DNA of 57,429 nucleotides from Verrucomicrobiota bacterium (GCA_026398065.1 JAPLTR010000271.1:1-57429); one strand, 5' to 3'; shown: positions 19,306 through 40,684, counted from the stretch's first letter. Numbers and translations: made by a program. The notes: generated by a model not told the origin, from the sequence alone.

Positions 19306-19340
19306 CTACTCGCTACTCACTACCCGCTACTCGCTACTTT
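19306..19340 (+). repeat. 5 x 7-bp tandem repeat leader (CTACTCG CTACTCA CTACCCG CTACTCG CTACTTT)
   Basis: Read directly. It is followed by CTCCCC and ATG 19347. Confidence 0.9.
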
Positions 19341-19346
19341 CTCCCC

Positions 19347-21764
19347 ATGTCCGACCTCCGCTCCGCTTTCCGTACCCTGCGAAAGACCCCCGTCCTCTCG
19401 CTCGTCATCATCCTGTCGCTCGCCGCCGGCATCGGCGCCAACACCACCATCTTCAGCTGGCTCAACAGCGCCGTCTTCCACCCGCTCCCCGGCGTCACCA
19501 CCGATCTGATCGCCCTTGAGGCCCGCAACGCCGCCGGCACCTATCCCGGCACCTCGTGGCTCGAATACCGCGATCTCGTGGAACGCCTGCCCTCGTTCTC
19601 CGGCCTCGCCGCCCAGCGTCCGCGCACCTTCTACCTCGGCGACAACGAGCGCGGCGAACGCCTCTGGGGCGAATTCGTCTCCGGCAATTTCTTCGAGGTC
19701 CTCGGCGTGCATCCCGCCCGCGGCCGGTTCTTCCGCCCCGACGAGGCCACAAACCCCGGCGGCGCGCCCGTCGCCGTTATCTCCGATAATTTCTGGCGCC
19801 GTCATTTCTCCGGCTCGGCCGAGGCCATCGGCCAGACCATCAAGCTCAACAACCGTCCGCTCACCGTCATCGGCATCGCCCCGCCCGGCTTCGCGGGCGC
19901 GTTCAACGCCCTCGGCTTCGACGTGTGGATCCCGCTCACGATGTCGTCCGAGCTCATGCCCGCGAGCCGTGAGCTCACCGACCGCGACACCCGCGCCTAC
20001 ATCCTCCTCGGCACGCTCAAGCCCGGCGTCTCCCGCGCCCGGGCCGAGGGTGAGGTCGCCGCCGCCGCCCGCTCCCTCGCCGCCGAACACCCCGGCACCA
20101 ACGACGGCATCCGCTACGAACTCCTGCCGCTCTGGCGCACCCCGCGGGGCGGCGCGATCCTCAGCGGCGCGCTCGCCACCCTCCAGTTGTTCGCCGTCCT
20201 CATCCTCGTCATCGTCTGCGTCAACACCGCCAACCTCCTCCTCGCCCGCGCCTCCGTCCGTCGCCGCGAGATGGGCATTCGCCTCGCCATCGGCGCCGGT
20301 GCCGGCCGCATCATCCGGCAACTCCTCACGGAGAGCGTCCTCCTCGCCCTCCTGGGCTCCGCCCTCGGCCTGCTCCTGGCCCTCTGGGGCGTCGACGCCA
20401 TCCGCCACATCCCCGTCCCGACCAACATGCCCGTGCGTCTCGGGGCCGAACTCGACTGGCGCGGCCTGCTCTTCGCCGTCGGCACCGGAGCCGCCAGCGG
20501 CCTGCTCTTCGGTCTCGCCCCCGCCCTCCAGCTCGCGCGCTCGGATGTGCAGCACGCCCTCCGCGGCGGGCGCGGGACGCTCTCCGGCCGCAGCCGTCTC
20601 CGCGATTTCCTCGTCGGCACCGAGGTCGCCGTCGCCCTGGTCATCCTCGTGCTCGCCGGGCTCTTCCTGAAGAGCTTCCGCAACGCCCAGACCGTGGACG
20701 CCGGCTACTCGGCCGACCGCGTCCTCCTCGCGTCCGTCGATCTCGTCGGCCGAGGCTACAGCCGGGCCACAATGCGCACCTTTCTCCGCGACGCCCAGGC
20801 CCGCCTCGAACAGATTCCTGGTGTTGAGCGCGCCGCCGCCGCCAACACCCTGCCACTCGATGTCCGCGGCGCGCCGAAATCCGCGCTCACCATCGATGGC
20901 GCTCCACGCACGCCCGGCGACACCGCCCAGGTTCTCTTCTACACCGTCACCCCCGGCTACTTCGCGACCATGGGCATCCACGTGGTCAATGGCACCGACC
21001 TCGCACCCCTGGATCAGGAGAAACGCACGCCGGACGCCGTCATCAGCGAGGAAATGGCGCGCCGCTTCTGGCCCGGTGTCTCGCCCCTCGGCCATCATTT
21101 CCGCCTCAGCGAGCAGGACGACGACTACGAGGTCGTCGGAGTCGCCCGGGAGAGCAAATACGAGAGCCTCGCCGAGCGCCCGCAGGCCGCCGTGTGGCTC
21201 ACCGCCCGCACGGGCGCGATCTTCACCCCCGTACTCCACGTCCGCGCCCGCAGCGGCGACCCGCTCGCGCTGCTCACCCCGATGCGCGCCGCCCTGCGCA
21301 CCCTCGATCCCGAGCTCGCGCTCTACGATGGCCGCACGCTCGCCCAACATATCGACAACAACCTCTTCCTCCAGCGCGTCCCCGCGCAGATGCTCAGCCT
21401 CCTCGCGCCTCTCGCCCTCCTGCTCGCCGCCATCGGCCTCTACGCCGTCCTGGCCTACACGGTCGCCCAGCGCACCCAGGAGATCGGCGTCCGCCTCACG
21501 CTCGGCGCCACACCCGCCTCCGTCGTCGGCCTGATCGTGCGCGAGGGCATGCAGGTCGTCCTGTTCGGCGCCGCCGCCGGCTGGCTCGTCGCACTCGCCC
21601 TCGGCTACACCTTCTCCACCCGGTTCGTCGGCGTCTCTCTCGGCGACCCGGTCATCTACGGCGGCATCCCCCTCCTCCTCCTCGCCGTCGCCGCCCTCGC
21701 CTGCTGGTTCCCCGCCCGCCGCGCCGCCCGCGTCGACCCGATGATCGCGCTGCGTGCAGAGTAG
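19347..21764 (+). CDS. ADOP-type duplicated FtsX/MacB permease, paralogue 3 (intact)
   Basis: 805 aa from ATG 19347. MSDLRSAFRTLRKTPVLSLVIILSLAAGIGANTTIFS... Two FtsX-type 4-TM modules, each with a large periplasmic domain. Ends RRAARVDPMIALRAE*. Confidence 0.88.
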   Translation: MSDLRSAFRTLRKTPVLSLVIILSLAAGIGANTTIFSWLNSAVFHPLPGVTTDLIALEARNAAGTYPGTSWLEYRDLVERLPSFSGLAAQRPRTFYLGDNERGERLWGEFVSGNFFEVLGVHPARGRFFRPDEATNPGGAPVAVISDNFWRRHFSGSAEAIGQTIKLNNRPLTVIGIAPPGFAGAFNALGFDVWIPLTMSSELMPASRELTDRDTRAYILLGTLKPGVSRARAEGEVAAAARSLAAEHPGTNDGIRYELLPLWRTPRGGAILSGALATLQLFAVLILVIVCVNTANLLLARASVRRREMGIRLAIGAGAGRIIRQLLTESVLLALLGSALGLLLALWGVDAIRHIPVPTNMPVRLGAELDWRGLLFAVGTGAASGLLFGLAPALQLARSDVQHALRGGRGTLSGRSRLRDFLVGTEVAVALVILVLAGLFLKSFRNAQTVDAGYSADRVLLASVDLVGRGYSRATMRTFLRDAQARLEQIPGVERAAAANTLPLDVRGAPKSALTIDGAPRTPGDTAQVLFYTVTPGYFATMGIHVVNGTDLAPLDQEKRTPDAVISEEMARRFWPGVSPLGHHFRLSEQDDDYEVVGVARESKYESLAERPQAAVWLTARTGAIFTPVLHVRARSGDPLALLTPMRAALRTLDPELALYDGRTLAQHIDNNLFLQRVPAQMLSLLAPLALLLAAIGLYAVLAYTVAQRTQEIGVRLTLGATPASVVGLIVREGMQVVLFGAAAGWLVALALGYTFSTRFVGVSLGDPVIYGGIPLLLLAVAALACWFPARRAARVDPMIALRAE

Positions 21765-21860
21765 TTTTTGCCACGGATTGCACGCCCTAAGGGACTTCCT
21801 CGCTCCGCTCGATCTCCACTGTGCCGCGAAGATTTGCTCATCTGATGGGCGCAGCTCAGA

Positions 21861-22193
21861 TTGGCCGCCTTGAAATCCAGCCTGTCCCGCCCCGACCCCG
21901 ACTTCCCCGCCTTTGTCAGCGAGCAGCTCGCCGCGATCCCCGCGCTCAAGAGCCGCCCGATGTTCGGCGCGCACGGCCTCTATTCCGGCGACACTTTCTT
22001 CGGGATCGTCTGGCGCGGCTCGCTCTATTTCCGGACCTCTCCCTCCACCGTCGCCGACTACGATGCCGCGAATGCCAGCTGGTTTCAGCCCAACCCCCAG
22101 CAGGCCCTGAAAACCTACCGCGAAGTCCCCGCCTCCGTCCTCGCCCGTCCGGCCTCGCTCCTCGCGTGGGCCCAACGCGCCATCGCCTGCTGA
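21861..22193 (+). CDS. TfoX N-terminal-domain protein
   Basis: 110 aa with a TTG start. RPMFGAHGLYSGDTFFGIVWRGSLYFRTS... matches the TfoX_N pattern (MFGG.GLY..G..F......LY.K). Confidence 0.6.
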   Translation: MAALKSSLSRPDPDFPAFVSEQLAAIPALKSRPMFGAHGLYSGDTFFGIVWRGSLYFRTSPSTVADYDAANASWFQPNPQQALKTYREVPASVLARPASLLAWAQRAIAC

Positions 22194-22250
22194 CGTCGCC
22201 CGCGCGCTTTGACGCCTTCGCGGCCCCCAAACCGGTTCACCCCGCAGTCG

Positions 22251-22379
22251 TCCCATTTCTGGGATGACGACGTTCCATCGTCGGACGCGCCGGCGCGCCC
22301 GTCCCGGCTTGGCTAAATTTTTAAGCGTTGCCCCGCCGGGCTTTGCCGCGCGACCCCGCCCCCGGGCACGCCCTCTGCA
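22251..22379 (+). promoter_or_regulatory. Sigma54 promoter module P3 (upstream of permease paralogue 4)
   Basis: GGGCACgccctCTGCA at 22364-22379 has GG-N10-GC spacing. The palindrome TCCCAtttcTGGGA at 22251-22264 lies 100 nt upstream of the GG. AAATTTTT at 22315-22322 sits about 50 nt upstream of the GG. Confidence 0.7.
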
Positions 22380-22489
22380 AACTCCCCCGCGCCGACTCCG
22401 CGCTTACCCAATTTCGCGGATTCCGGTTTTCGTTTTACCACCATTCCGTCCCTCGCCGCTCGCACCGCCACGCCCTCCCGCTCCCTCCG

Positions 22490-25012
22490 ATGCTCCTCGA
22501 AACCTTCCTCCAAGACCTCCGCCTCGGCGTCCGCGTGCTCATCAAGGAAAAGAGCTTCTGCGCCCTCGCCGTCGCCGTCCTCGCCCTCGGCATCTGCGCG
22601 GTCACCACCCAGTTCAGCGTCGTCAACGGCGTCATGCTCCGCGGCTTCTCGTTTCCCAACGCCGACCGCCTGATGAGTGTGCAGTTCATCGATCCCGCGC
22701 CCGCCCAGCCAAACCAGTTCGGCAACAACACCCAGGTCTTCGCCCTCGACTACCAGGAGATCGCCGCCAGCCAGAAATCCTTCGACCTCGTGGCCGCCTA
22801 CATCAACGGCTCCACCGTCAACCTCACCTACGAGGGCAAGCCCGAGCGCTACACCGGCGCCTACGTCACGGAAAACTTCTTCAAGATTCTCGGCGTCACC
22901 CCGGCCCGCGGCCGCGACTTCACCGCCGCCGACAACCGGCCCGGCGCCGAGAAGACCGCCCTCATCTCCCACGAGCTCTGGCAGGCCAATTTCGGCGGCG
23001 CCCCCGACATCGTCGGCAAATCTGTCCGCCTCAACGGCCGCGCCGCCGTGATCATCGGCGTGATGCCCCCGGGCTTCGCGTTCCCCGTCAACGAGCAGCT
23101 CTGGATCCCTCTCTTCACCGAGTTCCCGCCCAAGCCCCGCAACGAGCGTAATGCCCAGGGCAATACCCCCGCCGTCATCGGCCTGCTCCGCCCCGGCGTC
23201 AGCGTCGAACAGGCCAACAGCGAGATCTCCACGTTCGCCACGCGCCTCGCGCAGGACTTCCCCGACAGCAACAAGCAGTTCAGCGTCGGCCTCGTCCAGC
23301 CGCTCATCCGCACCTTCACCCCCGTCCAGATCCGGGGCCTCCTGCTCTCGATGCTCGGGGTCTGCGTCGCCGTCCTCTTCCTCGCCTGCTCGAACGTCAT
23401 GAACATGCAGTTCGCGCGCGCCACCCTCCGGGCCAAGGAGCTCGCCATCCGCTCCTCCCTCGGCGCGACCCGCTGGCGCCTCGTCCGCCAGATGCTCACC
23501 GAGAGCCTCCTCCTCGCCACCATCGGCGGCGTGGTCGGCGTCATCCTGGCCTACAAGGCCACCGACTTCCTCCAGGCCACCGTCAAGAACCTCCCCAACC
23601 CCATCCCGTCCTACATCACCTTCGACATCGATGGCCGCGTCCTCGCGCTCATCGTCGCCATCACGATGCTCGCCGCCATCGTCTCCGGCGTCGTCCCCGC
23701 CTGGCTGGCCTCGCACGCCAACCCCAACGACGCCCTCAAGGAGGGCGGCCGCGGCAACACCTCCCGCGCCATCAACTTCATCACGCGCGGCCTCGTCGTG
23801 TTCCAGATTTTCCTCACCTGCATCATCCTCATCGCCTCGTTCCTCCAGTTTCAGTCCATCCTCCGCCAGCAGAAGCTCGAGTACGGCTACAACACCACCG
23901 CCCTCGTCTCCGCCCGCATGGGGCTCATGGACGGCGACTACCCGACCGGCGACGCCCGCCGCCTCTTCTACGACCGCCTGCTCCGCGAGCTCCGCGCCTC
24001 CCCCGAGGTCGAGGCCGCCGCCCTCACCAGCCGCTTCCGCATGACCTTCGCCGGCAACGGCCCGATCGAGATCGAGGGCCGCGAGTACAAGGAGAACCGC
24101 GACCGCCCCAACGCCAACTTCGAGAACGTCACCGACGGCTACTTCGCCACGCTCGGTCAGAAGCTCCTCGAGGGCCGCGATTTCACGGCCGACGACACCG
24201 ACCTCCGGCAGCCCGTCGCCGTCGTGAATGCCTTCTTCGCCAAGAAATATTTTGGCACCGGGAGCGCCCTCGGCCGCCGCTTCCGCACCGTCGGCAACAA
24301 CGGCCAGCTCTTCGGAGCGTGGCGCACTATCGTCGGCGTCGTCTCCGATGTTCGGATGCTCGGCCCGTTCAACAATCCCAATGTCGACGCCGCCGGCTTC
24401 TACGTGCCGCTGTACTCGACCGTCTTCGGCCCCGCCGCCGCCCCCGTCGGCCAGCAGTTCACCACTGTCCTCGTCAAACCCCGTGGCGTCCCCGCCGCCA
24501 CCTTCGCCAACAACCTCCGCCGCCTCACCCAGCGCGCCGACGCCAATCTCCCGCTCTACTTCGTCGGCACCCCCGCCGAGAACATCGACAGCTTCCTCGG
24601 CCAGAACCGCGTGCTCGCCGCGATGTTCAGCACCTTCGGCGTCGTCGCGATGATTCTCGCCGCCGTCGGCCTCTACGGCGTCACCAGCTTCTCCGTCAAT
24701 CAGCGCACGTCGGAATTCGGCATCCGCATGGCCCTCGGCGCCGACCAGACCAACATCCTCGTCATGGTCCTCCGTCAGGGCTCCGTGCAGCTTGCCCTCG
24801 GCCTTGTCTTCGGCCTCGGCCTCGCCCTGCTCATCGCGATCCTCGGCGCCGAGGCCATCGGCAATGCCCTTTCCAACATGATCAGCCCGAGCGACCCGCT
24901 CACGTACCTCGCCGTCGCCGTCCTCCTCTCGGTCGTCTCCTTCGTCGCCACGCTCATCCCCGCCCGCCGCGCCACCCGCGTCGACCCCATGATCGCGCTC
25001 CGGGCGGAGTAG
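22490..25012 (+). CDS. ADOP-type permease, paralogue 4 (intact)
   Basis: 840 aa from ATG 22490. MLLETFLQDLRLGVRVLIKEKSFCALAVAVLALGICAVTTQFS... Ends RRATRVDPMIALRAE*. Confidence 0.88.
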   Translation: MLLETFLQDLRLGVRVLIKEKSFCALAVAVLALGICAVTTQFSVVNGVMLRGFSFPNADRLMSVQFIDPAPAQPNQFGNNTQVFALDYQEIAASQKSFDLVAAYINGSTVNLTYEGKPERYTGAYVTENFFKILGVTPARGRDFTAADNRPGAEKTALISHELWQANFGGAPDIVGKSVRLNGRAAVIIGVMPPGFAFPVNEQLWIPLFTEFPPKPRNERNAQGNTPAVIGLLRPGVSVEQANSEISTFATRLAQDFPDSNKQFSVGLVQPLIRTFTPVQIRGLLLSMLGVCVAVLFLACSNVMNMQFARATLRAKELAIRSSLGATRWRLVRQMLTESLLLATIGGVVGVILAYKATDFLQATVKNLPNPIPSYITFDIDGRVLALIVAITMLAAIVSGVVPAWLASHANPNDALKEGGRGNTSRAINFITRGLVVFQIFLTCIILIASFLQFQSILRQQKLEYGYNTTALVSARMGLMDGDYPTGDARRLFYDRLLRELRASPEVEAAALTSRFRMTFAGNGPIEIEGREYKENRDRPNANFENVTDGYFATLGQKLLEGRDFTADDTDLRQPVAVVNAFFAKKYFGTGSALGRRFRTVGNNGQLFGAWRTIVGVVSDVRMLGPFNNPNVDAAGFYVPLYSTVFGPAAAPVGQQFTTVLVKPRGVPAATFANNLRRLTQRADANLPLYFVGTPAENIDSFLGQNRVLAAMFSTFGVVAMILAAVGLYGVTSFSVNQRTSEFGIRMALGADQTNILVMVLRQGSVQLALGLVFGLGLALLIAILGAEAIGNALSNMISPSDPLTYLAVAVLLSVVSFVATLIPARRATRVDPMIALRAE

Positions 25013-25072
25013 CCTCCGAAATCGTTCTCTTTCCTCGTTCTCTTAATCTTTCTCCTCCCCCTTTTCCCGCGC

Positions 25073-25128
25073 CACCATTCGTCATTCCCCTCCAATCGAA
25101 AATCGAGAATCCAAAATCGAAAATTCCC
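25073..25128 (+). repeat. 8 x 7-bp phased leader: CACCATT CGTCATT CCCCTCC AATCGAA AATCGAG AATCCAA AATCGAA AATTCCC
   Basis: Read directly. The A/T-rich 35-bp part (25094-25128) recurs at 27647-27680 with one mismatch. Confidence 0.9.
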
Positions 25129-25141
25129 CCCGCCGGCCCTC

Positions 25142-27568: not shown

Positions 27569-27586
27569 CGATCACCAACCAGCCGT

Positions 27587-27614
27587 CTGCATTCGACCTT
27601 CGTCATTGGTCATT
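27587..27614 (+). repeat. 4 x 7-bp tandem repeat (CTGCATT CGACCTT CGTCATT GGTCATT)
   Basis: Read directly. Same NNNCATT family as 25073, 30145, 35070 and 40634. Confidence 0.85.
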
Positions 27615-27646
27615 TCCCCTCCCGCAACCACCCCGCGGCCCCGCCG

Positions 27647-27680
27647 AATCGAAAATCGAGAATCCCAAATCGAAAATTCC
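27647..27680 (+). repeat. A/T-rich heptad element AATCGAA AATCGAG AATCCCA AATCGAA AATTCC abutting the ATG
   Basis: 33/34 identical to 25094-25127. Directly precedes ATG 27681. Confidence 0.9.
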
Positions 27681-30095
27681 ATGTCTCTCCTCCGCCACGG
27701 CCTCACCTCCCTCCGCCGCGCCCCGCTCCTTGCGCTCACCATCGTCGCGACCCTGGGCGTCGCCCTCGCCGCGACCGTCATCGTCTTTTCGTTTCTCAAC
27801 TCCTTCCTCCTTCGACCCCTCCCCTACGGCGACGGCTCGCGTCTCGTGGTCGTGTATGAGCACTCCCTCGTCGGCGGACGCGACAACTCCACCCGCGTCA
27901 CCTACGGCAATGTCGTGGCCCTCCACGAACGCGCCACCGCCTTCTCGCGCAGCGGCATCTTCCGCAACGAGTCCGCCACCTTCCGCGGCGCCGATTCCAG
28001 CGAGACCGCCTTCGTCCAGCGCGTCACCGCCGAGATCTTTCCGATGATGGGCGCGCGCGCCGCCCTCGGCTCCGTGATCACGCCCGCGAACATCCAGACC
28101 GGCGGCCTCCGCGCCCTCGTGCTGTCCGATTCGCTCTGGCGCCGCCGCTTCGGCGCCGATCCCACCATCGTCGGTCGCACCATCCAGCTCGACCAAACCT
28201 CGTTCCAAGTCGTCGGCGTCATGCCGGCCGACTTCGTCGTGCCCACCGGCGACGACAGCCCCCAGGCCTGGGCCGCCCTCCTCCGCTCCGACTACGATCC
28301 CGCCGAGCGCACCCAGCGCCGCCACCACTTCTGGGGCGAACTCGCCCCCGGACGCAGCCTCGTCTCCGCCGAGGCCGAACTCGCCACCCTCGCCGCCCAG
28401 CTCCGCCGCGAGTTCCCCCGGGAAAACGCCGACCGCGGCCTCCGCGTCGTCTCGCTCCGCGACGACCTGCTCGGCAACTTCGGCCGCCAGTTGTTCCTCC
28501 TGCAGGGCGCCGTGCTGCTCGTGCTGACCGTCGCCTGTTTCAACTGCCTCTGCCTGCTGATCGCCCGCGCGATTCAACGCCGCCGGGAGTTCGCCGTGCG
28601 CCTCGCCCTCGGCGCCTCGGTGCGCCACCTCCTCGCGCAGCTCTTCGCCGAGTCGCTCTGGCTCGCCGTCCCCGCCGCGGCCCTCGCGTGCGGGCTCGCC
28701 GCGCTCGCCCTGCCCTTCGGCGTCTCCCTCCTCCCGCCGCTCGGCCCGCTGCCGGCCCCGCAGGTCGATGCCACCGTGATCGCCGCCGTATCGCTGGCCG
28801 CGGTCGGCCTCGCCGCCATCTTCAGCGCCGTCCCGCTGCTGCAGGCCCGCCGCCTCAATCTCGAGGCCACGCTCCGCGAGGGCGGCCGCACCGCCGGCTC
28901 GCGCGGCTCCGCCCGCGCCGCCCGCTTCCTCGCCGCCGGCCAGATCGCCGTCGCCCTCGCCCTCCTCATCTGCGGCGCGCTCCTGGTCCGCAGCCAGGAC
29001 GCGCTCCAGCGCGTGGATGTCGGCCTGCCCATTGCCGAGTTCGACCAGTTCCGCATCGGTCTCCGCGGCGACGCCTACACGGCCAGTCCCGCCCGCCGCG
29101 TCCAGTTCTTCGAGCGCCTCCGCGAAAACCTCCTCACGATTCCTGGTGTCCGCGACGTCGGGGTGGCGAGCTTCCTCTTCTCCCGCCCACCCGGCGGCTA
29201 CACCGGCTTCGTGCAGGAGGGCGACGGTCTCCAACTCTCCGATACGCCCAAGCGCGCCCTCCCCAACTACGTCCTCCCCTCCACGCTCAACGCCCTCGGC
29301 TTCCGCCTGCTCGATGGCCGCCTCCTCGCCGACACCGACGACGCCAGCCATCCGCCGGTCGCCGTGATCAGCGCCTCTGTCGCCGCCAAATACTGGCCCG
29401 GCCAGTCGCCGCTGGGGAAACGCGTCCGGCTCGACGTCCCCCGCGTCACCGCCTGGGCCGAGGTCGTCGGCGTCGTCTCCGATGTGATCGGCACCGGCGC
29501 CGAGCCGCGCGTGGTCGACACGTTTTATCTCACCATCGCGCAATGGACCCCGCCCGGCCTCGGCATGGGCTTCATCGTCCGCCACAGTGGCACCGCGCCC
29601 GACGAGCGCCAGCTGCAGCGCGCCGTCGCACAGATCGATCCCGCCATGCAGCTCTTCGCCCATCTCTCGCCCTCGGCGATCTATGCCCGCAGTCTCTGGC
29701 AGGTGGGCTTTGTCACGAAACTCGTCGGCGCCTTCGCCCTCATCGCCGTCGCTCTCTCGCTCGCCGGCATCTACGCCGTCAACTCCTTCTTCGTCGCCCG
29801 CCGCATCAACGAATTCGGCATCCGCGCCGCCCTCGGCGCCACGCGCCTTGACCTCCTCCAGCTCGTCCTCCGCGACAGCCTGCGCCTCACCGTCGCCGGC
29901 CTCGCCGCCGGCGCGCTCCTGGCCTTCGCCGCCAGCCGCGGTCTCACCAACCTCCTCTACAACGTCCCCGCCCTCGACCTCCTCGTTTACACGGCCGCCG
30001 CCCTCGCCATGACCCTCGCCTGCGCCGGCGCCACCCTCCTCCCCGCCCGCCGCGCCGCGAAAGCCGACCCCCTCACCGCCCTCCGCGCGGAATGA
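27681..30095 (+). CDS. ADOP-type permease, paralogue 6 (intact)
   Basis: 804 aa from ATG 27681. MSLLRHGLTSLRRAPLLALTIVATLGVALAATVIVFS...RPLPYGDGSRLV... Ends RRAAKADPLTALRAE*. Confidence 0.88.
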   Translation: MSLLRHGLTSLRRAPLLALTIVATLGVALAATVIVFSFLNSFLLRPLPYGDGSRLVVVYEHSLVGGRDNSTRVTYGNVVALHERATAFSRSGIFRNESATFRGADSSETAFVQRVTAEIFPMMGARAALGSVITPANIQTGGLRALVLSDSLWRRRFGADPTIVGRTIQLDQTSFQVVGVMPADFVVPTGDDSPQAWAALLRSDYDPAERTQRRHHFWGELAPGRSLVSAEAELATLAAQLRREFPRENADRGLRVVSLRDDLLGNFGRQLFLLQGAVLLVLTVACFNCLCLLIARAIQRRREFAVRLALGASVRHLLAQLFAESLWLAVPAAALACGLAALALPFGVSLLPPLGPLPAPQVDATVIAAVSLAAVGLAAIFSAVPLLQARRLNLEATLREGGRTAGSRGSARAARFLAAGQIAVALALLICGALLVRSQDALQRVDVGLPIAEFDQFRIGLRGDAYTASPARRVQFFERLRENLLTIPGVRDVGVASFLFSRPPGGYTGFVQEGDGLQLSDTPKRALPNYVLPSTLNALGFRLLDGRLLADTDDASHPPVAVISASVAAKYWPGQSPLGKRVRLDVPRVTAWAEVVGVVSDVIGTGAEPRVVDTFYLTIAQWTPPGLGMGFIVRHSGTAPDERQLQRAVAQIDPAMQLFAHLSPSAIYARSLWQVGFVTKLVGAFALIAVALSLAGIYAVNSFFVARRINEFGIRAALGATRLDLLQLVLRDSLRLTVAGLAAGALLAFAASRGLTNLLYNVPALDLLVYTAAALAMTLACAGATLLPARRAAKADPLTALRAE

Positions 30096-30144
30096 CGAAT
30101 ACCGGATGACGGAGGCCCCCCGCACCGGTCGCCCCCTCGCAATC

Positions 30145-30186
30145 CGTCCTTCGTCACTAGCCATTAGGCATTGGTCATTCGTCATT
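30145..30186 (+). repeat. 6 x 7-bp tandem repeat (CGTCCTT CGTCACT AGCCATT AGGCATT GGTCATT CGTCATT)
   Basis: Read directly. Followed by CCCC, 42 nt before ATG 30229. Confidence 0.9.
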
Positions 30187-30228
30187 CCCCGGTAACCTTT
30201 CCCTTCCCGGCGAGTTTTCGGTTGCGCC

Positions 30229-32641
30229 ATGCTTGCCGATCTCAAGTTCGCCCTCCGCCAGCTCGCGAAATCCCCCGGCTTCACCGCCGTCGCCGTCCTC
30301 TCCCTCGCCCTCGGCATCGGGGCCAACACCGCCGTCTTCAGCCTGATGAAGGCCGTCCTGCTCGAAATGCTGCCAGTCAGGGCCCCGCAGGAACTCGTCA
30401 TCTTCAACTGGCTCGCCGAGGAAAACGTCGGCCCTCAGTCCTCCAGCGGCTGGAGCACCACGGAGCCCGGTTCCAACCAGCGCACCAGCACGTCGTTTTC
30501 CCTCGCCACCTTCGAGGCGTTTCAAAAACAGCCCGGTCCCCTCTCCGCCGTCTTCGCTTTCGCCCCCACCGGTGGATTCAACGTGATCGTCGATGGTACC
30601 GCCGAGATCGCGGGCGGCTGTCAGGTTGCTTCCGGCGGCTATCATCTCGGACTCGGCGTCACGGCCGCCGCCGGCCGCCTTTTCACCCCCGCCGACGACC
30701 TTCCTTCGGCCGAGCCCGTCGCCGTGATTTCGTACCGCTACTGGCAGCGCCGTTTCGGTGGCGACCCGGCCGCCATCGGAAAATCCATCACGGTCAACGG
30801 CGTCCCCACCATCCTGATCGGCGTCACCTCTCCCTCGTTCAACGGCACGATGCAGGTCGGCGAAGTCACCGACATCACGATCCCCCTCGCCCACGAGACC
30901 CGCCTCAGCCGTTCTCCCTACGACAACCGCAAGCCCGGCTATTGGTGGGTCCGCATCATGGGCCGGATGTCCCCCGGCGCCACGCTCGCCCAGGCCCGCG
31001 GCGCCCTGGAGGGCGTCTTTCACGAAACCGCGCGCGGCAACGTCAGCGCGAGCACCTGCCCGGCGCGCCCGCCGTCGACCCCGCCACGATTCCCCTGCCT
31101 CAGCTCCGCGCCGAGCCCGGCGGCCAGGGTCTCTACGAGGCGCGGCGCAACTACGAGCAGTCGCTGCGGCTCCTCCAGGGCGTCGTCGCCCTCGTCCTGC
31201 TCGTCGCCTGCGCCAACGTCGCCAATCTGGCCTCGTGTTCTCCCTCTGGGGGGCGCGGGCCCTCCTTGCCCTGAAGCCGTTTGGCTCCGGCACGCTCGAT
31301 CTCGACACCTCCCTCGACTGGCGCGTGCTGGGCTTCACCTCCGCCATCGCGCTCGCGACCGGCATTGTCTTCGGCCTCGCCCCCGCCCTCCGCGCCACGC
31401 GCCTGAACCTCACCGCCGAGTTCCAGGGCGGCGCGCGCACCCTCGGCGCCGGCTCGCGCTCCGCCCTCGCGAAATCCCTGATGGTCGTCCAGGTCGCCCT
31501 CTCCCTCGTGCTGCTCGTCGGCGCCGGGCTGTTCGTCCGCACGCTGCGCAACCTCCAAAACGTCGATGTCGGTTTCAACCGAGAGCAGTTGCTGCTGTTT
31601 CAGATCAACGCCGCCGCCAACGGCGCCACCGGCCCGCAGTCCCTCGCCCTTTACGAGCGCATGCGCACCCGCTTCACCACCCTGCCGGGCGTCAACCGCG
31701 TCTCGTTCGGCCGCATGCCGACGCTCAGCCAGAACAACTGGACCTCCGGCGTCATGGTGCCCGGCTACGTCCAGACCGAACGCTACGACAGCATCCGCCT
31801 GAACGGCGCCGGCCCCGACTACCTCGCCACCCTCGGAATCCCGCTGCTGCGCGGTCGCGATTTCACCGACCGCGATGTCCACGGCGCGCCCAAGGTCGCG
31901 ATCGTCAACCAGGCCTTCGCCAAAAAATACCTGGGCTCGGAGGAGGAGGTCATCGGCCGCCGCTTCTCCACCGACCGCAAGGCCACGACGCCCGACATCG
32001 AGATCGTCGGCCTGATGCGTGACGCGCAGTATTCCCATGTGAAGACGCCCCCGCCGGCCGTCGCGTTCTTTCCCTACGCCCAGCTCAATCCGGACAACGC
32101 CGGCATGGGTCATTTCATCCTGCGCTATCAGGGTGGCGAGGCCGCGCTCATCACCGCCCTCCGCGCCGCCGCGCGCGAGATCGACGCCACGCTCCCCATC
32201 ACCAACATCCGCACCCAGCAGGAACAGCTCGACCGGCTCTTCACCCAAGAGCGGCTTTTCGCGACCCTGTGCAGCCTCTTCGGCGGCCTGGCCCTCGTCC
32301 TCTCCGCCATCGGTCTGTACGGCCTCATGTCCTACGCCGTCCACCGCCGCACCGGTGAAATCGGCCTGCGCATGGCGCTCGGCGCGCTCCCACAAAACGT
32401 GCTCTCCATGGTCGTCCGCGAATCCCTCGTCCTCGTGCTCGTCGGCGTGGCGGTCGGCGTCGCCGCCTCGCTGGGTGCAACGCGCACCATCGCCAGCCTC
32501 CTCTTCGGCCTCTCCGGCACCGACCCGCTCACCTACGGTCTCGTCGCCCTCGGCCTGATCGCCGTCGCGCTCTTCGCCGCCCTGCTCCCGGCCCGCCGCG
32601 CCAGCCGCATCGATCCGATGCAGGCGCTGCGCACCGAGTAG
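30229..32641 (+). pseudogene. ADOP-type permease, paralogue 7: one frameshift plus an internal deletion
   Basis: ATG 30229 gives MLADLKFALRQLAKSPGFTAVAVLSLALGIGANTAVFS. The family sequence shifts frame at ~31040-31052 (..GVFHETARGN / ..EHLPGAPAVDPATIPLPQLRAEPGGQGLYEARRNYEQSLRLL..ACANVANL). It shifts again at ~31229-31240, resuming at VFSLWGARALLALKPFG. About 45 conserved residues (LLARA..REIAVRLALGA..TESLLLA..) are absent. The canonical end RRASRIDPMQALRTE* is present. Confidence 0.7.
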
Positions 32642-32721
32642 CCATCGGTCCCTCGCCGCGGACCTCGCGTCCTTTTACCTTCGATTTCTCCGCCGTTCTC
32701 CGCACGTTGGCCGGCAGCCCC

Positions 32722-35019: not shown

Positions 35020-35069
35020 CGCCACGACCTCCTCCGTAGGCCGCCCGCTCGCGGGCGCTTTCATCCCCT

Positions 35070-35090
35070 AGCCATTCGACATTCGTCACT
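35070..35090 (+). repeat. Heptad array AGCCATT CGACATT CGTCACT interrupted by the IS630 insertion (continues at 36337-36357 as AGTCCTT CGACACT CCTCTGG)
   Basis: Read directly. Removing the IS and one TA restores a phased 6 x 7-bp array that ends at ATG 36358. Confidence 0.8.
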
Positions 35091-36337
35091 AGTGTAGTGT
35101 CCCGCAATTGACTCGGCATAACGGCGGCCGGCCGGCCGGGCCCGACTTCAAGAGCGGTTGCTCGCGGTGGAGGAGCGGGGTTTGGGTTGCGTGGAGCCCG
35201 GCTCGATCTGGTCGAGCCGTTGGCGGGCGCGAGCGATTTTTTCGAGGATGGACTCGATGCTGGCAGTCCACACGAAAGGCGCAGGAGCGGCGTTCCAAGC
35301 GGTGAGAAACTCGGTGATGGCGCGTTGCAGTTCGCACACGCTGTGAAAGACACCGCGCCGCACGGCCTTTTGGCTGAGTTCGGCGAACCACCGTTCGATC
35401 AGATTGAGCCAACTCGAACTGGTCGGGATGAAGTGCAGCACAAACCGGGGATGCCGGGCCAGCCAGCGCCGGACGCGCACGTGGCCGTGCGTGCCATAGT
35501 TGTCGAGGATCAGGTGCAGGGCTTTCCCGCTAGGGAACTCGGCATCGAGTCGTTGGAGAAACTTCAAAAACTCCTGGTGCCGGTGCCGAGGATAGCATTG
35601 GCCGATCACCCGGCCCTCGACGACTTGCAGGGCGGCAAACAACGTCGTGGTGCCGTGGCGGTGGTAGTCGTGCGTGTAGGTCCCACAGCGACCGGGCTTG
35701 AGCGGCAGGCCGGGCTGCGTGCGATCCAACGCTTGAATCTGGCTCTTCTCATCGACGCACAGCACGACCGCGTTCTGCGGCGGCGTCAGGTAGACGCCGA
35801 CCACGTCGGTGAGCTTCTCCAAGAACTTCGGGTCACGGGAGAGTTTGAAGCTTTTGGTCAGATGCGGTTTGAGCCCGTGATCCTGCCAGGCCCGTTGAAT
35901 CGTGTTTTTGCTGACCCCTTGCGCGCGGGCCATCTGGCGCGTGCTCCAGTGGGTCGCGCCAGCCGGCTTGGTTTGGAGCGTGGCATCGATCCACTGCCCG
36001 ACGCGCGCAGCGGTGTAGGAGCGTTTGCGCCCACGCCCGGCGGCAATCTCCCACACACAGCCGATGCCTTGCTCGCGCACCCGCCGTCGCCACAGCGCGG
36101 CGGTCTCACGCCGAATCCCCAGTGCGCTCGCGGTCGCCTTGTCGGACTGCCCTTGCGCAGCCCCGCGAATAATCCGGGCACGAAGCACCACCTGCTGCGG
36201 CGTCGATCCCGCACGGATCCATTGCTCAAGGCGGATCTGCTCCGCGTCCGACAAAACCACCGGCAAACTTGTTCGCGACATCCGGCCATCCTACCGGCCG
36301 AACGCTTATGCCGACTCAATTGCGGGACACTACACTA
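35090..36337 (-). mobile_element. IS630-family insertion sequence (1244 bp) with 30-bp terminal inverted repeats and a TA target duplication
   Basis: Left IR GTGTAGTGTCCCGCAATTGACTCGGCATAA (35092-35121) matches the reverse complement of 36306-36335 at 29/30 positions. TA flanks both ends (35090-91 and 36336-37). Single transposase ORF. Confidence 0.92.
35148..36281 (-). CDS. IS630-family DDE transposase
   Basis: 377 aa. N-terminal HTH domains. Catalytic region ...VLCVDEKSQIQALDR...LHLILDNYGTHG...SSWLNLIERWFAEL, the typical IS630/Tc1-like DD(35)E pattern. Confidence 0.9.
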   Translation of the reverse strand: MSRTSLPVVLSDAEQIRLEQWIRAGSTPQQVVLRARIIRGAAQGQSDKATASALGIRRETAALWRRRVREQGIGCVWEIAAGRGRKRSYTAARVGQWIDATLQTKPAGATHWSTRQMARAQGVSKNTIQRAWQDHGLKPHLTKSFKLSRDPKFLEKLTDVVGVYLTPPQNAVVLCVDEKSQIQALDRTQPGLPLKPGRCGTYTHDYHRHGTTTLFAALQVVEGRVIGQCYPRHRHQEFLKFLQRLDAEFPSGKALHLILDNYGTHGHVRVRRWLARHPRFVLHFIPTSSSWLNLIERWFAELSQKAVRRGVFHSVCELQRAITEFLTAWNAAPAPFVWTASIESILEKIARARQRLDQIEPGSTQPKPRSSTASNRS

Positions 36338-36357
36338 GTCCTTCGACACTCCTCTGG

Positions 36358-36783: not shown

Positions 36784-36816
36784 GGGCCCAACTCGCCCGC
36801 GCCCCCATCCGCCCCC

Positions 36817-37902
36817 TCACCGCGCTGCCACAAACGGCTCGATCGCCCGCAGCCCCGCGCCCGCACACGCCGCGTCACGCTGTGCCGGCTCCGCAAACAG
36901 ATACACCGCGTAGCCGCCAAAGCCGCCGCCGCAGTACTTCCACGCGAGCGCCCCCGGCAGATCCGCCCGCAACTCCGCCATGCCTTCGGCCCGCTGCACC
37001 GCATACGACTGCCGCACTGCGTCGGCGAGACCCGCCAGACTGCTTTGCCAGACCGCGTCGCGCGCCGTCGCGCCCGCCCGTGCGATCGCATCGTAGTTCC
37101 GCGCCCCGCCGACCATCGCCGGGGTGTCGTGCTCGCTGCCCGTCCAGAGCAGCGCCATGCGCCCGCGCAGGAACTCCCCGCCCGTCTTCACGTCGAGCAC
37201 CGGGCGCGGACCGCTGCGCCACGCGCACAGTCCCGTCTCGGCGATCACCGCCGGATCCTGCCAGCCCACGCCGAGGTCGAGTTCCGACCCGATGCCATCC
37301 TTGCCGTTGAGCAGCGCCCACGCTCCCGAGCCGCCCAGGCCCGCATTGCGCTCGTAGGACCACTCGCGCAACGACACCGTCGGCGAGATCGCACAGTTCA
37401 CGATGTACGCCCCCGCCCGCGCGAGCCGCGGCACGTCGAGCCAGCCGCCGCCGAAATCCACCCGCAGCGGCGCGACCTCGGGCGCCCGGATGAACTTCAC
37501 GATCTGCGTCGTCGAGATCGGGGTGAACTTCGGCGGCGTCTTCGGCATCACCACATAGCTAGCCCCCACCTCCGCGCACAGCGCGCGCTTCAGCGGCCCG
37601 TACTTGTCGTCGTCCGTCACCGCGAGGATGTTCGGCCGCAGGCGCAAAAAGTGGTCCTTGAAATCGACGCCCTCCTCCTTCCCTTCGCCCACGACGACCT
37701 CGTCCACCATCTCCAGGGCCGCAATGAGCGCGCGCTTGTGCTCGTCGGGCAGGGAACTCCGCCGCTGCTTGTGGTGCCAGAGCACGTCGTTCGACGCGAA
37801 ACACACCGTCAGGTGGTCGCCCAGCGCCCGCGCCTCGCGGAAAAACTGCACGTGGCCCGCATGGAGGATGTCGTAGCAGCCGGAGACAAAGACGCGGATC
37901 AT
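36817..37902 (-). CDS. Fusion of a cytidylyltransferase-like nucleotidyltransferase and a GHMP-type kinase
   Basis: 361 aa from ATG 37902. MIRVFVSGCYDILHAGHVQFFREAR carries the (H/T)xGH motif of the cytidylyltransferase family. The C-terminal part has the GHMP-like motifs NAGLGGSGAWALL and YCGGGFGGYAVYLF. Confidence 0.6.
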   Translation of the reverse strand: MIRVFVSGCYDILHAGHVQFFREARALGDHLTVCFASNDVLWHHKQRRSSLPDEHKRALIAALEMVDEVVVGEGKEEGVDFKDHFLRLRPNILAVTDDDKYGPLKRALCAEVGASYVVMPKTPPKFTPISTTQIVKFIRAPEVAPLRVDFGGGWLDVPRLARAGAYIVNCAISPTVSLREWSYERNAGLGGSGAWALLNGKDGIGSELDLGVGWQDPAVIAETGLCAWRSGPRPVLDVKTGGEFLRGRMALLWTGSEHDTPAMVGGARNYDAIARAGATARDAVWQSSLAGLADAVRQSYAVQRAEGMAELRADLPGALAWKYCGGGFGGYAVYLFAEPAQRDAACAGAGLRAIEPFVAAR

Positions 37903-38075
37903 GGTGGGTTCGGATCGAAAGGGAGGATCGTCACGCTCTCCGCCCCACCCGCACCCCGTCAACCTGCGATTTCCTCCAAAAATCGTTCTCGTTCCTCGTC
38001 ATCGTTCTCTTTCGTCAGGCACCCGGGGTCGGCGGAAAACCGAGAACCATCGAAAGCAAGCTGACCGAGGAGCTC

Positions 38076-38924
38076 CTACCGCGCCCCACCCCGCTCCCGG
38101 TACTCCGTCGGCGTCATGCCGGTGCACCGCACAAACGCCCGCGAAAACACCACCGCGCTGCGATACCCCACGCGCGGCGCGATCGCATCGAGCTTGTCCC
38201 CCGTGGTCGCGAGCAGCTCCTGCGCCCGCTGTATCCGCATATAGGTGACGTGCTCCATCGGCGTGCGGCCCAGCTCGCGCCGGCACAGCCGCCGCAGGTG
38301 TTCCGCGCTCAGCGAACACTCCTTCGCCAGCGTCCCGAGCTTCCACTCCGCCGTCAGGTCGCGCGCCACCGTTTCCCAGAGGGCGCCCACCCGCGACCCG
38401 CTCCGCCACGGCCGCGCCCGGCGCCAGGCGAGCCCGTGCGCCAGCGACACCCAATGGCGCACCATGTCCGCCTCACGGTCGCCCTCCCACTCCGCCCGCA
38501 GCCCCGCGATCACGCGCCCAAACTCCTCCGCCCCCTGCGCCTGCCGCAGGGGCGAACCCGCCCCGACGAGCGGCTTCGTCCACGGCGCCTCGTCGTACCG
38601 CACCCACGCAAACACCCAGCGCTTCCCCGGCACCGCGTGAAACGCATTGAGCACCCGCGGCGGCGCGAGGCACAGCGAGCCCGCCGCCACCCGCTGCCAG
38701 CGCCCCTCCAGCCACACGCGTCCCTCGCCTTCGAGGCACGCGAGGAAAAAGCTCCCGGACGGCGCCAGCCGCACGCGGCTGTAGGGCGCATGCACCGTGT
38801 CGATCCCCAGCCACGCGATGTGCTGCGTCTTCAGCTCGGGGCACTGTTTCGCGTCCAGCGACCACCGTCGCGTGCGCGCGCCATCGACGGTCGTTTCTTT
38901 CCAGATGTGGGGGGGCGTCGGCAT
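38076..38924 (-). CDS. AraC-family transcriptional regulator
   Basis: 282 aa from ATG 38924. Cupin-like N-terminal domain. C-terminal double HTH ...LAKECSLSAEHLRRLCRRELGRTPMEHVTYMRIQRAQELLATTGDKLDAIAPRVGYRSAVVFSRAFVRCTGMTPTEYR. Confidence 0.85.
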   Translation of the reverse strand: MPTPPHIWKETTVDGARTRRWSLDAKQCPELKTQHIAWLGIDTVHAPYSRVRLAPSGSFFLACLEGEGRVWLEGRWQRVAAGSLCLAPPRVLNAFHAVPGKRWVFAWVRYDEAPWTKPLVGAGSPLRQAQGAEEFGRVIAGLRAEWEGDREADMVRHWVSLAHGLAWRRARPWRSGSRVGALWETVARDLTAEWKLGTLAKECSLSAEHLRRLCRRELGRTPMEHVTYMRIQRAQELLATTGDKLDAIAPRVGYRSAVVFSRAFVRCTGMTPTEYRERGGAR

Positions 38925-38973
38925 GGGCTGAACCGCCCCCAGCACCTGCGCCAACTCCCCCGCCCCCGCAAGC

Positions 38974-39001
38974 GAATGTGCAAAATCGTCAGTTGAATGT
39001 G
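38974..39001. promoter_or_regulatory. Direct repeat GAATGTG-N14-GAATGTG in the divergent AraC/sulfatase intergenic region (candidate AraC-type operator)
   Basis: GAATGTG occurs at 38974-38980 and 38995-39001, 21 bp start to start (two helical turns). This spacing is typical of AraC-family direct-repeat half-sites. Confidence 0.4.
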
Positions 39002-39068
39002 TGCGATCCGGCCTTGTTCCGCCCCGTGATCGGCCCAAGGGTTCCCTTCCCCGTTCGCGGTTCGCCGA

Positions 39069-40601
39069 ATGCCCACCCCTCGCCTACGCCCGCTTCTCCT
39101 CGTCGTCCTCGCGGCGCTCTCCGGTCTCCGCGCCGCCGATACCCCTGCACGGCCCAACGTCCTGTTCATCGCCGTCGACGACCTGAAGCCCATGATCGGC
39201 GCCTACGGCGACCGCCTCGCCCGCACGCCGAACCTCGACCGCCTGGCCGCCCGCGGGCTCCTCTTCGAAAACGCCTACTGCAACCAGGCCGTCTGCGCCG
39301 CCTCGCGCAACAATCTCCTCGTCGGCTCCCGCTCCACCACCCTCGGCATCTACGGCCTCGCCCTGAATTTCCGCCGCTCCGTCCCCGACGCCGTCACACT
39401 CCCGCAGTATTTCATGCGGCAGGGCTACCGGACCGAGGGCATGGGAAAGATTTTCCACGTCGGCCACGGCAACACCGACGATCCCGCCTCCTGGAGCGTC
39501 CCGTTCAAAAAGGACAACGTCGTCGACTACGCTCTCCCCGAGAGCACCGACGGCGGCAAGCTCACCCGCGAGGCCGCCCTCTTCAGCAACGCCCAGCCCG
39601 GCGTCCCCCTCGGGCAGCTCCCCCGCGGCGCCGGCTGGGAAAACGCCGACCTCCCCGACACCGCCTACGCCGACAGCCGCATCGCCGATCACGCCATCGC
39701 GAGCCTGCGCGGCGCGAAGGAAAAGCCCGCCGAGCCCCTCTTCCTCGCCGTCGGCTTCGTCCGCCCCCACCTCCCGTTTTCCGTGCCGAAAAAATACTGG
39801 GACCTCTACGACCGCGCCACGCTTCCGCTCGCCGTCCGCCGCACTCCGCCCGACGGCGCCCCCGCGTACGCCGGCAAAACTCTCGGCGAACTCAACCAGT
39901 ACAAGCCCTTCCCCGAAAATCCCCCACTCTCCGAGGAACTCGAGCGGACCGCGATTCACGGTTACTATGCGAGCGTCTCCTACATGGACGCCCAACTCGG
40001 CCGCGTCCTCGACGAACTCGACCGCCTCAACCTCGCCGCCAACACCATCATCGTCCTCTGGAGCGACCACGGCTGGCACCTCGGCGACCACGGCATGTGG
40101 ACGAAGCACACCAACTACGAGCAGGCTACTCACATTCCCCTCCTGATCGTGGCCCCCGGCGTCACGCGTCCCGGCACCCGCACCACCGCCCTCGTCGAGA
40201 CCGTCGATCTCTATCCCACTCTCCGTGACCTCGCGCACCTTCCCACCGTCGCCGTCCCGCAGACGCTCGACGGCCTTAGCCTCGTCGCGATTCTCCGCGA
40301 CCCCGCGACCGCCACGATCCGCGACCACGCCACGCACGCGTACCCGCGCAACGTCCCCGGCCGCGGCGAACTCCTCGGCCGCGCCATCCGCACCGCCCGC
40401 TACCGCCTCGTCGAATGGAAAAAGATCGGCGCCCCCGCCGACACCGCCGATCTTGAGCTCTACGACTACGAGACCGACCCCCTCGAAACCAAAAACCTCG
40501 CCGCCTCCCAGCCCAAGGTCGTCACCGAACTCCGCGCCATCCTCGCCCGCCAGCCCGAGGCGAAACCCCGCCCCGGTGCCGCCGCCACCCAGCCCAAATA
40601 A
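39069..40601 (+). CDS. Secreted sulfatase (iduronate-2-sulfatase-like, formylglycine-dependent)
   Basis: 510 aa. Signal peptide. NVLFIAVDDLKP metal-site motif. Active-site box QAVCAASRNNLLVG (C-x-A-x-R at 39294-39308). Later motifs LWSDHGWHLGDHGMWTKH. Confidence 0.88.
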   Translation: MPTPRLRPLLLVVLAALSGLRAADTPARPNVLFIAVDDLKPMIGAYGDRLARTPNLDRLAARGLLFENAYCNQAVCAASRNNLLVGSRSTTLGIYGLALNFRRSVPDAVTLPQYFMRQGYRTEGMGKIFHVGHGNTDDPASWSVPFKKDNVVDYALPESTDGGKLTREAALFSNAQPGVPLGQLPRGAGWENADLPDTAYADSRIADHAIASLRGAKEKPAEPLFLAVGFVRPHLPFSVPKKYWDLYDRATLPLAVRRTPPDGAPAYAGKTLGELNQYKPFPENPPLSEELERTAIHGYYASVSYMDAQLGRVLDELDRLNLAANTIIVLWSDHGWHLGDHGMWTKHTNYEQATHIPLLIVAPGVTRPGTRTTALVETVDLYPTLRDLAHLPTVAVPQTLDGLSLVAILRDPATATIRDHATHAYPRNVPGRGELLGRAIRTARYRLVEWKKIGAPADTADLELYDYETDPLETKNLAASQPKVVTELRAILARQPEAKPRPGAAATQPK

Positions 40602-40633
40602 CTCCCCTGCACCCCTCGTCACGTTTCACCCTC

Positions 40634-40668
40634 CGTCAATAGACATTAGACATTCGTCATTAGTCATT
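40634..40668 (+). repeat. 5 x 7-bp tandem repeat (CGTCAAT AGACATT AGACATT CGTCATT AGTCATT)
   Basis: Read directly, 16 nt before ATG 40685. Confidence 0.9.
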
Positions 40669-40684
40669 CCATCCCCCTCTCACC

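Follow-up and report, generated by a model that had tools for sequence, protein, structure and literature searches.

The contig of a Verrucomicrobiota genome analysed here (GCA_026398065.1, JAPLTR010000271.1:1-57429; its whole length of 57,429 nucleotides is referred to below as the window) carries tandem arrays of 7-nucleotide (nt) units before several of its genes, and these arrays belong to a small set of dispersed modules. The modules lie at start codons and operon junctions with a fixed polarity, and solo modules hardly fold; Shine-Dalgarno (SD) sites do not rise above background in this genome, one module hairpin is conserved across a genus, and units and copy numbers turn over among relatives. 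Our preferred interpretation, which we put forward tentatively, is that the modules are transcribed and play two roles: a solo module would form an open, SD-free start region, and two inverted modules would form an RNA hairpin between adjacent cistrons.

The window is contig C694 of a metagenome-assembled genome (MAG) of 7.2 Mb in 1004 contigs, with 67% G+C, about 90% completeness and 5% contamination. By orthologue search its relatives are freshwater MAGs of the Opitutaceae ("Opitutus sp. GAS368" and "Opitutaceae bacterium"), phylum Verrucomicrobiota. All gene starts used below come from our own codon-bias gene caller, which predicted 5833 genes and 84% coding DNA. A first-pass annotation of the window had reported period-7 arrays before six start codons. 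Tandem Repeats Finder and inspection of the sequence bear this out at all six sites, where the arrays lie 0-41 nt 5' of the ATG of a genuine gene. The phenomenon extends over the genome, since 72 period-7 arrays were counted in 1.12 Mb of intergenic DNA as against 3-11 in five Markov shuffles; for period 8 the count was 13 arrays and for period 11 it was 0. The pattern (AATCGAA)x3, with at most 3 mismatches allowed, had 83 matches in the genome, while its reversed control had none.

At least six unit families and about 120-150 arrays could be distinguished genome-wide. Counted as loci in gene sense, AATCGAA is the largest family (about 40), followed by xGTCATT (about 30), GGAGCTT (15) and CTACTCG (11); CTCAACT, CGTTCTC and CCTTGGT were also found. 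Reversed-sequence controls were at or near zero for every family but CTCAACT, the rarest family so tested, for which the control gave 5 loci and the real sequence 4. Units within a module are imperfect, and the arrays are the most AT-rich DNA of this 67% GC genome. Their copy number is narrow, 75 of 154 arrays having 4.0-5.0 copies and only 7 more than 5.5. Whole modules reappear almost unchanged at unrelated loci, down to the order of their variant units. For example, a 34-nt AATCGAA module (AATCGAA AATCGAG AATCCAA AATCGAA AATTCC) is almost identical at 25094 and 27647 of the window and on contigs C617 and C147, and the module at 19306 has near-identical copies on contigs C472, C143 and C27, the first of which keeps the same order of variant units. 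The CGTTCTC/GAGAACG element has 19 copies in the genome, most of them followed by a complementary GAGAACGA arm, and congeners hold many copies that are 94-97% identical. Because near-identical modules recur at unrelated loci, the arrays are to be regarded as dispersed copies of modules of about 35 nt and not as independent local expansions.

Two simpler descriptions of the arrays were tried and rejected. A pervasive 7-nt periodicity of all leaders is not supported, as the lag-7 autocorrelation over 1638 leaders was barely raised and the arrays touch only about 2% of genes. Nor are the arrays restricted to genes of ADOP permeases; the downstream genes are diverse and include glmS, rbfA, ddl, sufD, yebC and upp, among others. 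A separate period-10 family (GGTCGGATTT / CCTTGATTTG) was seen outside the window, at C761:9898-10425 of genome G000 and in 65 other places. At a strict threshold 65 of 66 of these arrays are intergenic (130 arrays against 0-1 in shuffles), and the C761 copies lie within tandem units of about 205 bp. Every period-10 unit contains GGA, a feature that recalls CsrA/RsmA-sponge RNAs.

About two thirds of all arrays are solo. A sense start codon lies within 60 nt for 34 of them and an antisense start for 8. Where solo arrays occupy gaps between co-directional genes, 27 of 30 are closer to the start than to the preceding stop, with medians of 5 nt and 66.5 nt, respectively (p = 8e-6). AATCGAA modules mostly end in AAAATYCC plus 0-4 nt, and then the ATG follows. 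SD-like 4-mers precede 5.6% of 1638 ATG genes, compared with 6.3% in a control region, which is the background level. Leaders are C-rich and G-poor, with C at −1 in 67% and at −2 in 58% of genes and with CCTCC/CCACC enriched upstream; such a C-rich start context is visible in the window at 19340-19349, 27675-27683 and 40675-40687. An altered anti-SD sequence was considered as the cause of the SD scarcity and rejected, because the 16S rRNA 3' end is canonical (CACCTCCTTTCT) in complete genomes of the same genus, where the anti-SD is therefore intact; a 16S rRNA gene was not found in this MAG.

Computed folds set the start regions apart. The mean minimum free energy from −45 to +12 was −6.5 kcal/mol for array leaders, −11.6 kcal/mol for all leaders, −17.6 kcal/mol inside genes and −18.7 kcal/mol after stops. 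Start regions are thus predicted to be the least structured part of the transcriptome, and array leaders, which contain 15% G, are more extreme still (Mann-Whitney p = 2e-5). Over lengths of 89-138 nt, solo leaders in the window reach −4.3 to −17 kcal/mol and do no better than shuffles, their z-scores being close to 0 or positive. The leader of ATG 25142 reaches only −6.8 kcal/mol over 138 nt, and the 92-nt gap that holds the array at 40634-40668 only −4.3 kcal/mol.

The remaining third of the arrays behave differently. A complementary inverted partner was found within 200 nt for 38 of 120 arrays, and for none in the control. Of the resulting 24 pairs, 20 separate co-directional genes and a single one separates divergent genes, so that the idea of inverted pairs as leaders of divergent genes was rejected. 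Between the stop codon and the upstream arm there are 0-8 nt, between the downstream arm and the next start there are 5-14 nt, and the whole folds at −32 to −63 kcal/mol. Arm polarity is fixed within each family, and the hairpin loops are unique sequences. Such hairpins are found at operon junctions, namely infB-rbfA and those before sufD, ddl and yebC. The window has a single paired-module site, at 30090-30187, whose arms (30090-30116 and 30140-30187) fold at −51.7 kcal/mol (z = −2.06). Consequently, the earlier proposal that the arrays are leaders replacing an SD sequence can be kept only in part. The background-level SD signal, the median distance of 5 nt between sense solo arrays and starts, and the low structure of these leaders agree with it. 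However, a third of the arrays are hairpin arms and others lie in frame within open reading frames (ORFs), so the word leader covers only part of the picture.

The junction between infB and rbfA is a case of conservation. In 12 of 12 congeners a (GATTTTC)n/(GAAAATC)n hairpin occupies this gap, whose length stays at 87-91 nt. Pairing in its 12-bp core amounts to 94% of cells, as against 20-60% when the partner is slid, and three pairs show compensatory changes from A-U to G-C, which probably reflect one or two events; the covariation thus has few independent events behind it. At the same junction in other genera of the family, heptad-armed hairpins are built from other units, such as AATCGTA (G082), CTTCAGC (G013) and GCAATAA (G074). 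For sequences from ten genera the z-scores of the folds lie between −2.4 and −7.6, and in several of these sequences 1-3 heptads before the ATG are left unpaired; some genera have plain GC-rich hairpins or nearly no gap. Conservation of this hairpin with compensatory changes argues for selection on the structure.

A solo array shows a different kind of turnover. The xGTCATT array before the gene at 40685 is kept, with 4-5 units, before the orthologue in seven congeners, which carry additional CCTTGGT arrays (3.5-5.5 units) and CACTTT/CCCTTT arrays there. Unit numbers differ between species in whole units although the proteins are 95-98% identical. Ahead of the heptad leader, a conserved motif (CCATGTGGAAAATCATCACCCGCATGTGTGAACTCCACCC) stands about 100-160 nt upstream of the orthologue in L003, L004, L005, L006, L009 and L010, and kindred GTGGA...GATAGC...GTGGA motifs occur before it across Verrucomicrobiota. 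This motif is likely an operator or promoter of the orthologue; it is absent from the window locus, where a sulfatase gene lies upstream instead. The pair ATGTGGAAAATCATCACC..GCATGTGTGAACTCCAC upstream of the congener arrays was examined as a general promoter and discarded, being locus-specific, with no general motif in this genome. In L116, a MAG labelled 'uncultured Klebsiella sp.', a period-6 hairpin (GGATTA/GGATCA ... TCCTAA/TCTTAA) ends at the ATG of the orthologue, a similar design with a different period; the label looks wrong for a Verrucomicrobiota-like gene.

The following mechanism would accommodate these observations. A few dispersed modules, each of about five imperfect 7-nt units (about 35 nt), would be co-transcribed with genes in a fixed polarity, and the arrays are presumably present in the mRNA at every site. 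At a start codon, a solo module would provide a G-poor, A/U/C-rich and nearly unstructured stretch from about −40 to −1 as a landing region for the ribosome. Initiation would be SD-independent and would favour unstructured RNA, and the arrays may promote it. Two inverted modules would instead form a long hairpin that spans the gap from the stop codon of one gene almost to the start codon of its successor, often with 1-3 heptads left unpaired beside the ATG. Most probably the hairpin acts at the RNA level, where it could protect the 3' end of the upstream cistron, serve as a double-strand processing site, or make initiation at the downstream gene depend on translation of the upstream one. These three roles are drawn from what is established for intercistronic hairpins. 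Any choice among them we can only infer, and likewise the mode by which modules spread.

The features of the window are collected in Table 1. Tandem Repeats Finder called period-7 repeats at 19306-19338 (CTACTCG, 4.7 copies), 25094-25124 and 27647-27677 (AATCGAA, 4.4 copies each), 30145-30187 (CGTCATT, 6.1 copies) and 40640-40668 (4.1 copies). Some statements of the first-pass annotation need revision. It had placed the units in strict phase, which is correct inside each module and does not hold between modules, since 27587 and 27647 are 60 nt apart and this is no multiple of 7. It had assigned most arrays to one NNNCATT/CGTCATT family, whereas the window holds three unit families; the array at 25073-25128 alone mixes two, its five-unit AATCGAA module being preceded by two xxxCATT units and a C-rich one. 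Two elements had also escaped it, namely the complementary upstream arm (30090-30116) and, at 25019-25054, the element of CGTTCTC type. On the other hand, it was right that an array split by an insertion sequence (IS) has six units once the IS is removed: without the IS630 element the array reads AGCCATT CGACATT CGTCACT AGTCCTT CGACACT CCTCTGG and runs straight into ATG 36358.

Table 1. Heptad arrays and associated elements of the window (+, strand shown; −, opposite strand).
Feature	Position	Strand	Units or evidence	Context
Solo CTACTCG module	19306..19340	+	CTACTCG CTACTCA CTACCCG CTACTCG CTACT	Ends 6 nt before ATG 19347, ADOP permease
CGTTCTC-type element	25019..25054	+	AATCGTTCTCTTTCCTCGTTCTCTTAATC...	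Begins 7 nt past stop 25012; upstream-arm type of the GAGAACG hairpin family, partner missing here
Eight in-phase heptads	25073..25128	+	CACCATT CGTCATT + CCCCTCC + AATCGAA x5	End 13 nt before ATG 25142, ADOP permease
Four xGxCATT units, then C-run	27587..27614	+	CTGCATT CGACCTT CGTCATT GGTCATT	
AATCGAA module	27647..27680	+	Tandem Repeats Finder and sequence	Directly abuts ATG 27681, ADOP permease
Hairpin, upstream arm	30090..30116	+	GGAATGACGAATACCGGATGACGGAGG	Overlaps stop codon 30093-30095
Hairpin, downstream arm	30140..30187	+	Six xGxCATT heptads, CCCC end	41 nt before ATG 30229, frameshifted ADOP gene
xGxCATT array, left half	35070..35091	+	AGCCATT CGACATT CGTCAC+TA	Cut by IS630 insertion
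IS630-family insertion sequence	35092..36335	−	NF033545, E = 1.6e-74; inverted ends; TA duplication	Transposase 35148-36281, minus strand
xGxCATT array, right half	36336..36357	+	TA GTCCTT CGACACT CCTCTGG	Abuts ATG 36358, 141-aa ORF
Solo xGxCATT module	40634..40668	+	CGTCAAT AGACATT AGACATT CGTCATT AGTCATT	16 nt before ATG 40685

The genes headed by arrays in the window are four ADOP permeases (19347, 25142, 27681 and 30229), the 141-aa ORF (36358) and a PEP-hydrolase-like gene (40685) that comes after the sulfatase gene. In a profile search of the window genes the ADOP permeases matched TIGR03434 with E-values down to 1e-256. A frameshift splits the fifth ADOP permease gene (30229-32641): the match of 30229-32022 covers just the first 243 model positions, and from about 31235 the remainder lies in another frame. 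Either this gene is a pseudogene or the assembly is wrong here. The IS630 element is intact and lies 20 nt upstream of ORF 36358; heptad arrays supply the TA targets (CACTAG) for such insertions. After stop 25012, genomes G000 and G001 share the CGTTCTC element and diverge downstream of it, and G011 and G006 have no arrays there. GC skew on the coding strand is about −0.25 (C >> G); along the window (1-57429) it is −0.2 to −0.29 where genes are on the plus strand and positive where they are on the minus strand, a flip in sign which means that the skew tracks the direction of transcription. Across the whole window no Rfam 15 model matched at or above its gathering score. Neither an exact-protein look-up nor a flank-anchored pattern scan of metagenome contigs returned a match that could serve for a strain-level comparison.

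Several observations weigh against our preferred interpretation. Arrays are carried by only about 2% of genes, and all others start without SD and without arrays; initiation at large therefore does not depend on them. Across the phylum only about 5-10 of 80 orthologues of the 40685 gene have such arrays, all of them in close Opitutaceae. In the hairpins the start-proximal arm is paired, which alone would hinder and not help initiation. About a dozen copies lie in sense within long ORFs, where they encode linkers (SKIENPKSKI, LSTLNPQ) or parts of signal peptides (FVIGHSSLVIL); such copies cannot serve as leaders, which suggests that the modules spread regardless of function. The near-identical copies of 31-36 nt at unrelated loci, together with genome-specific unit variants, look like an amplifying element. 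Finally, the gene starts are those of a simple home-made caller.

These points lead to the main rival, namely that the arrays are a selfish or neutral dispersed repeat, a hairpin cassette (or arrays spread by slippage and gene conversion) that is copied to new sites and survives where it is harmless, as in stop-to-start gaps, leaders, protein linkers and signal peptides. We consider this possible, though less probable than leaders and hairpins with a role. Solo arrays would then be decayed halves of cassettes, and their polarity and closeness to starts would stem from where insertion is preferred and tolerated and would say nothing of a role in expression. The small number of families, each with a fixed module of about 4-5 units, is what a spreading element would produce, as is the recurrence of near-identical copies, grouped in sub-families, at unrelated loci. 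The in-frame copies in ORFs, which are in sense only (no antisense copy of any family was found inside called genes), point the same way. Distribution is patchy among close relatives: of the 63 genera in the family, 48 have (AATCGAA)x3-like arrays, with 0 to about 350 matches per genome and 0 in the congener G009, and such arrays are scattered elsewhere in the phylum. Unit variants are genome-specific (AATCGTA/AATCATA dominates in G094, which has no AATCGAA, and AATCGAA/AATCGAG in G013, while G082 has both), orthologous gaps are filled by different unit families in different species, and cassettes occupy the whole gap as though inserted at the junction.

However, no gene that would mobilise the modules was found. 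A search of the MAG, itself about 90% complete, gave 0 matches to PF05635, the 23S rRNA intervening-sequence protein, and the three PF01797 (Y1 transposase-like) matches, which might have pointed to a RAYT, have no period-7 array on any of their contigs. The loops are unique, unlike those of typical MITEs, and no target duplications were seen. Tolerance alone leaves the strong start-side bias of solo arrays unexplained. In addition, the infB-rbfA hairpin keeps a constant gap and compensatory changes across the genus, and a hairpin of some unit stands at this junction in many genera. The two interpretations are compatible and can both be true, if a spreading element has since been co-opted.

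A more specific idea, which we think unlikely, is that a dedicated factor binding single-stranded RNA (of S1/Csp-type OB-fold, or ribosome-associated) reads the heptads one per domain or subunit and so chooses the starts of a subset of genes in SD-poor bacteria. Co-evolution of units with such a factor would explain the genome-specific variants, the constant heptad period and size of about five units, and the occurrence of one architecture in cyanobacteria, Beggiatoaceae and Verrucomicrobiota.

Alternatively, in line with the protein-binding arrays that the first-pass annotation suggested, the heptads may be DNA sites that a protein binds one per subunit to control downstream transcription. 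Heptads are reportedly bound in this manner by the omega repressor of pSM19035 and, as TTTTGAT repeats of the ctxAB promoter, by ToxR/H-NS. Contiguous direct and inverted heptads are the layout of omega operators. For ctxAB, a heptad promoter array is documented (10.1101/2021.05.14.444153). The AT-richness of the arrays would suit operators, and genome-specific variants would fit a binding protein that co-evolves with its sites. Nevertheless, the fixed transcriptional polarity and the lack of any antisense copy in genes speak for the RNA or coding level. Many arrays lie within operons where no promoter is expected (infB-rbfA, sufD), and arrays abut the ATG instead of lying as far from it as a promoter would. 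A search for sigma-70-like promoters beside the arrays gave none, although the consensus used may not suit this phylum. Moreover, the arms stay complementary through compensatory change, which a DNA-binding array does not need. We therefore regard operators as improbable, less likely than either the leader and hairpin or the selfish interpretation.

Less likely still is the first-pass suggestion of slipped-strand contingency loci: whole-unit steps do separate species before the 40685 orthologue (xGTCATT 4-5, CCTTGGT 3.5-5.5), and seven-base repeats are known slippage substrates (PMC4679880; PMC12721329), but a switch or tuner of ADOP exporters and other genes within a population is very improbable given that the tracts are broken by variant units, that copies cluster at 4-5, that housekeeping genes, essential ones among them, are served (rbfA, ddl, glmS, sufD, yebC), that the infB-rbfA gap is constant in 12 species, and that arrays outside an ORF allow no frame switch.

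Annotation gains from the arrays too, as they mark true start codons and account for odd low-complexity protein inserts such as SKIENPK.

Comparison with known repeats makes the arrays a further case of the heptamer repeats of cyanobacteria and Beggiatoaceae, a class that still awaits explanation. The first-pass annotation knew of no described function; this stands as regards function, but the phenomenon itself has been described, both as TAACTGA repeats (PMC4679880) and as STRR hairpins (PMC2670836). No description of such repeats in Verrucomicrobia or Opitutaceae was found in the literature searched. A resemblance to REP/REPIN elements, which are mobilised by RAYT (PMC3733652), lies in the short, dispersed, intergenic copies, their occurrence as singlets and inverted doublets, their frequent position after stops in operons and their genome-specific families. 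In contrast to REP/REPIN, the arms here are direct heptad arrays and not small palindromes with a GTAG/CGTC tail, start-codon proximity is strong, polarity is fixed, and solo modules have no fold of their own (−4 to −11 kcal/mol, z near 0).

The STRR heptamers of cyanobacteria are closer. They too comprise several tandem 7-bp families, intergenic and near starts, with hairpins between co-transcribed genes; here, 20 of 24 pairs lie between co-directional genes. The unit GAC(C/T)AAT, repeated 8 times before recO of Nostoc PCC 7120, is the reverse complement of (G/A)GTCATT in the window (27601-27614, 30173-30186 and 40655-40668); relative to the gene, this common unit has the reverse polarity here. 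(G/A)GTCATT is also a rotation of TTGGTCA, a cyanobacterial STRR unit. Between hupS and hupL such a hairpin has been proposed to act in transcript stability or translational coupling, neither being proven (PMC2670836). In Nostoc PCC 7120, the heptamers ahead of recF/recO had a modest effect on reporter output (10.1101/2022.06.06.494920). Unlike STRR, the present arrays occur in Opitutaceae and not in heterocystous cyanobacteria, and among published units only (G/A)GTCATT matches, as complement. Cyanobacterial arrays can also be much longer, whereas here module size is near-constant and one junction hairpin is conserved family-wide.

The TAACTGA direct repeats found in marine Beggiatoaceae, in some cyanobacteria and in Bacteroidetes, for which translational roles have been proposed (MacGregor 2015, PMC4679880), are likewise tandem 7-nt units, forward, in 2-6 copies, a few nt from starts and with no SD in the gaps. 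Their downstream genes are diverse and include housekeeping genes, copies in ORFs are few, phylogeny is patchy, and strains differ in 7-nt steps (PMC4679880). TAACTGA itself occurs in this genome as 56 single copies and in no direct repeat of two or more. The arrays described here differ in having several families, imperfect units, a module of about five units and inverted pairs for a third of arrays, in a 67% GC Verrucomicrobiota host. Their forward units, unlike TAACTGA, contain no stop codon, so that sense copies can lie in ORFs. Taken together, the start-adjacent heptamers that have stayed unexplained for decades in cyanobacteria, giant sulfur bacteria and Bacteroidetes gain a whole family, the Opitutaceae, and scattered cases elsewhere in Verrucomicrobiota. 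This family is a useful one, with SD sites nearly absent, module size and polarity fixed, and the infB-rbfA hairpin kept while units were swapped between genera; as it includes cultured strains, the question of expression signal versus genomic parasite can be tested there.

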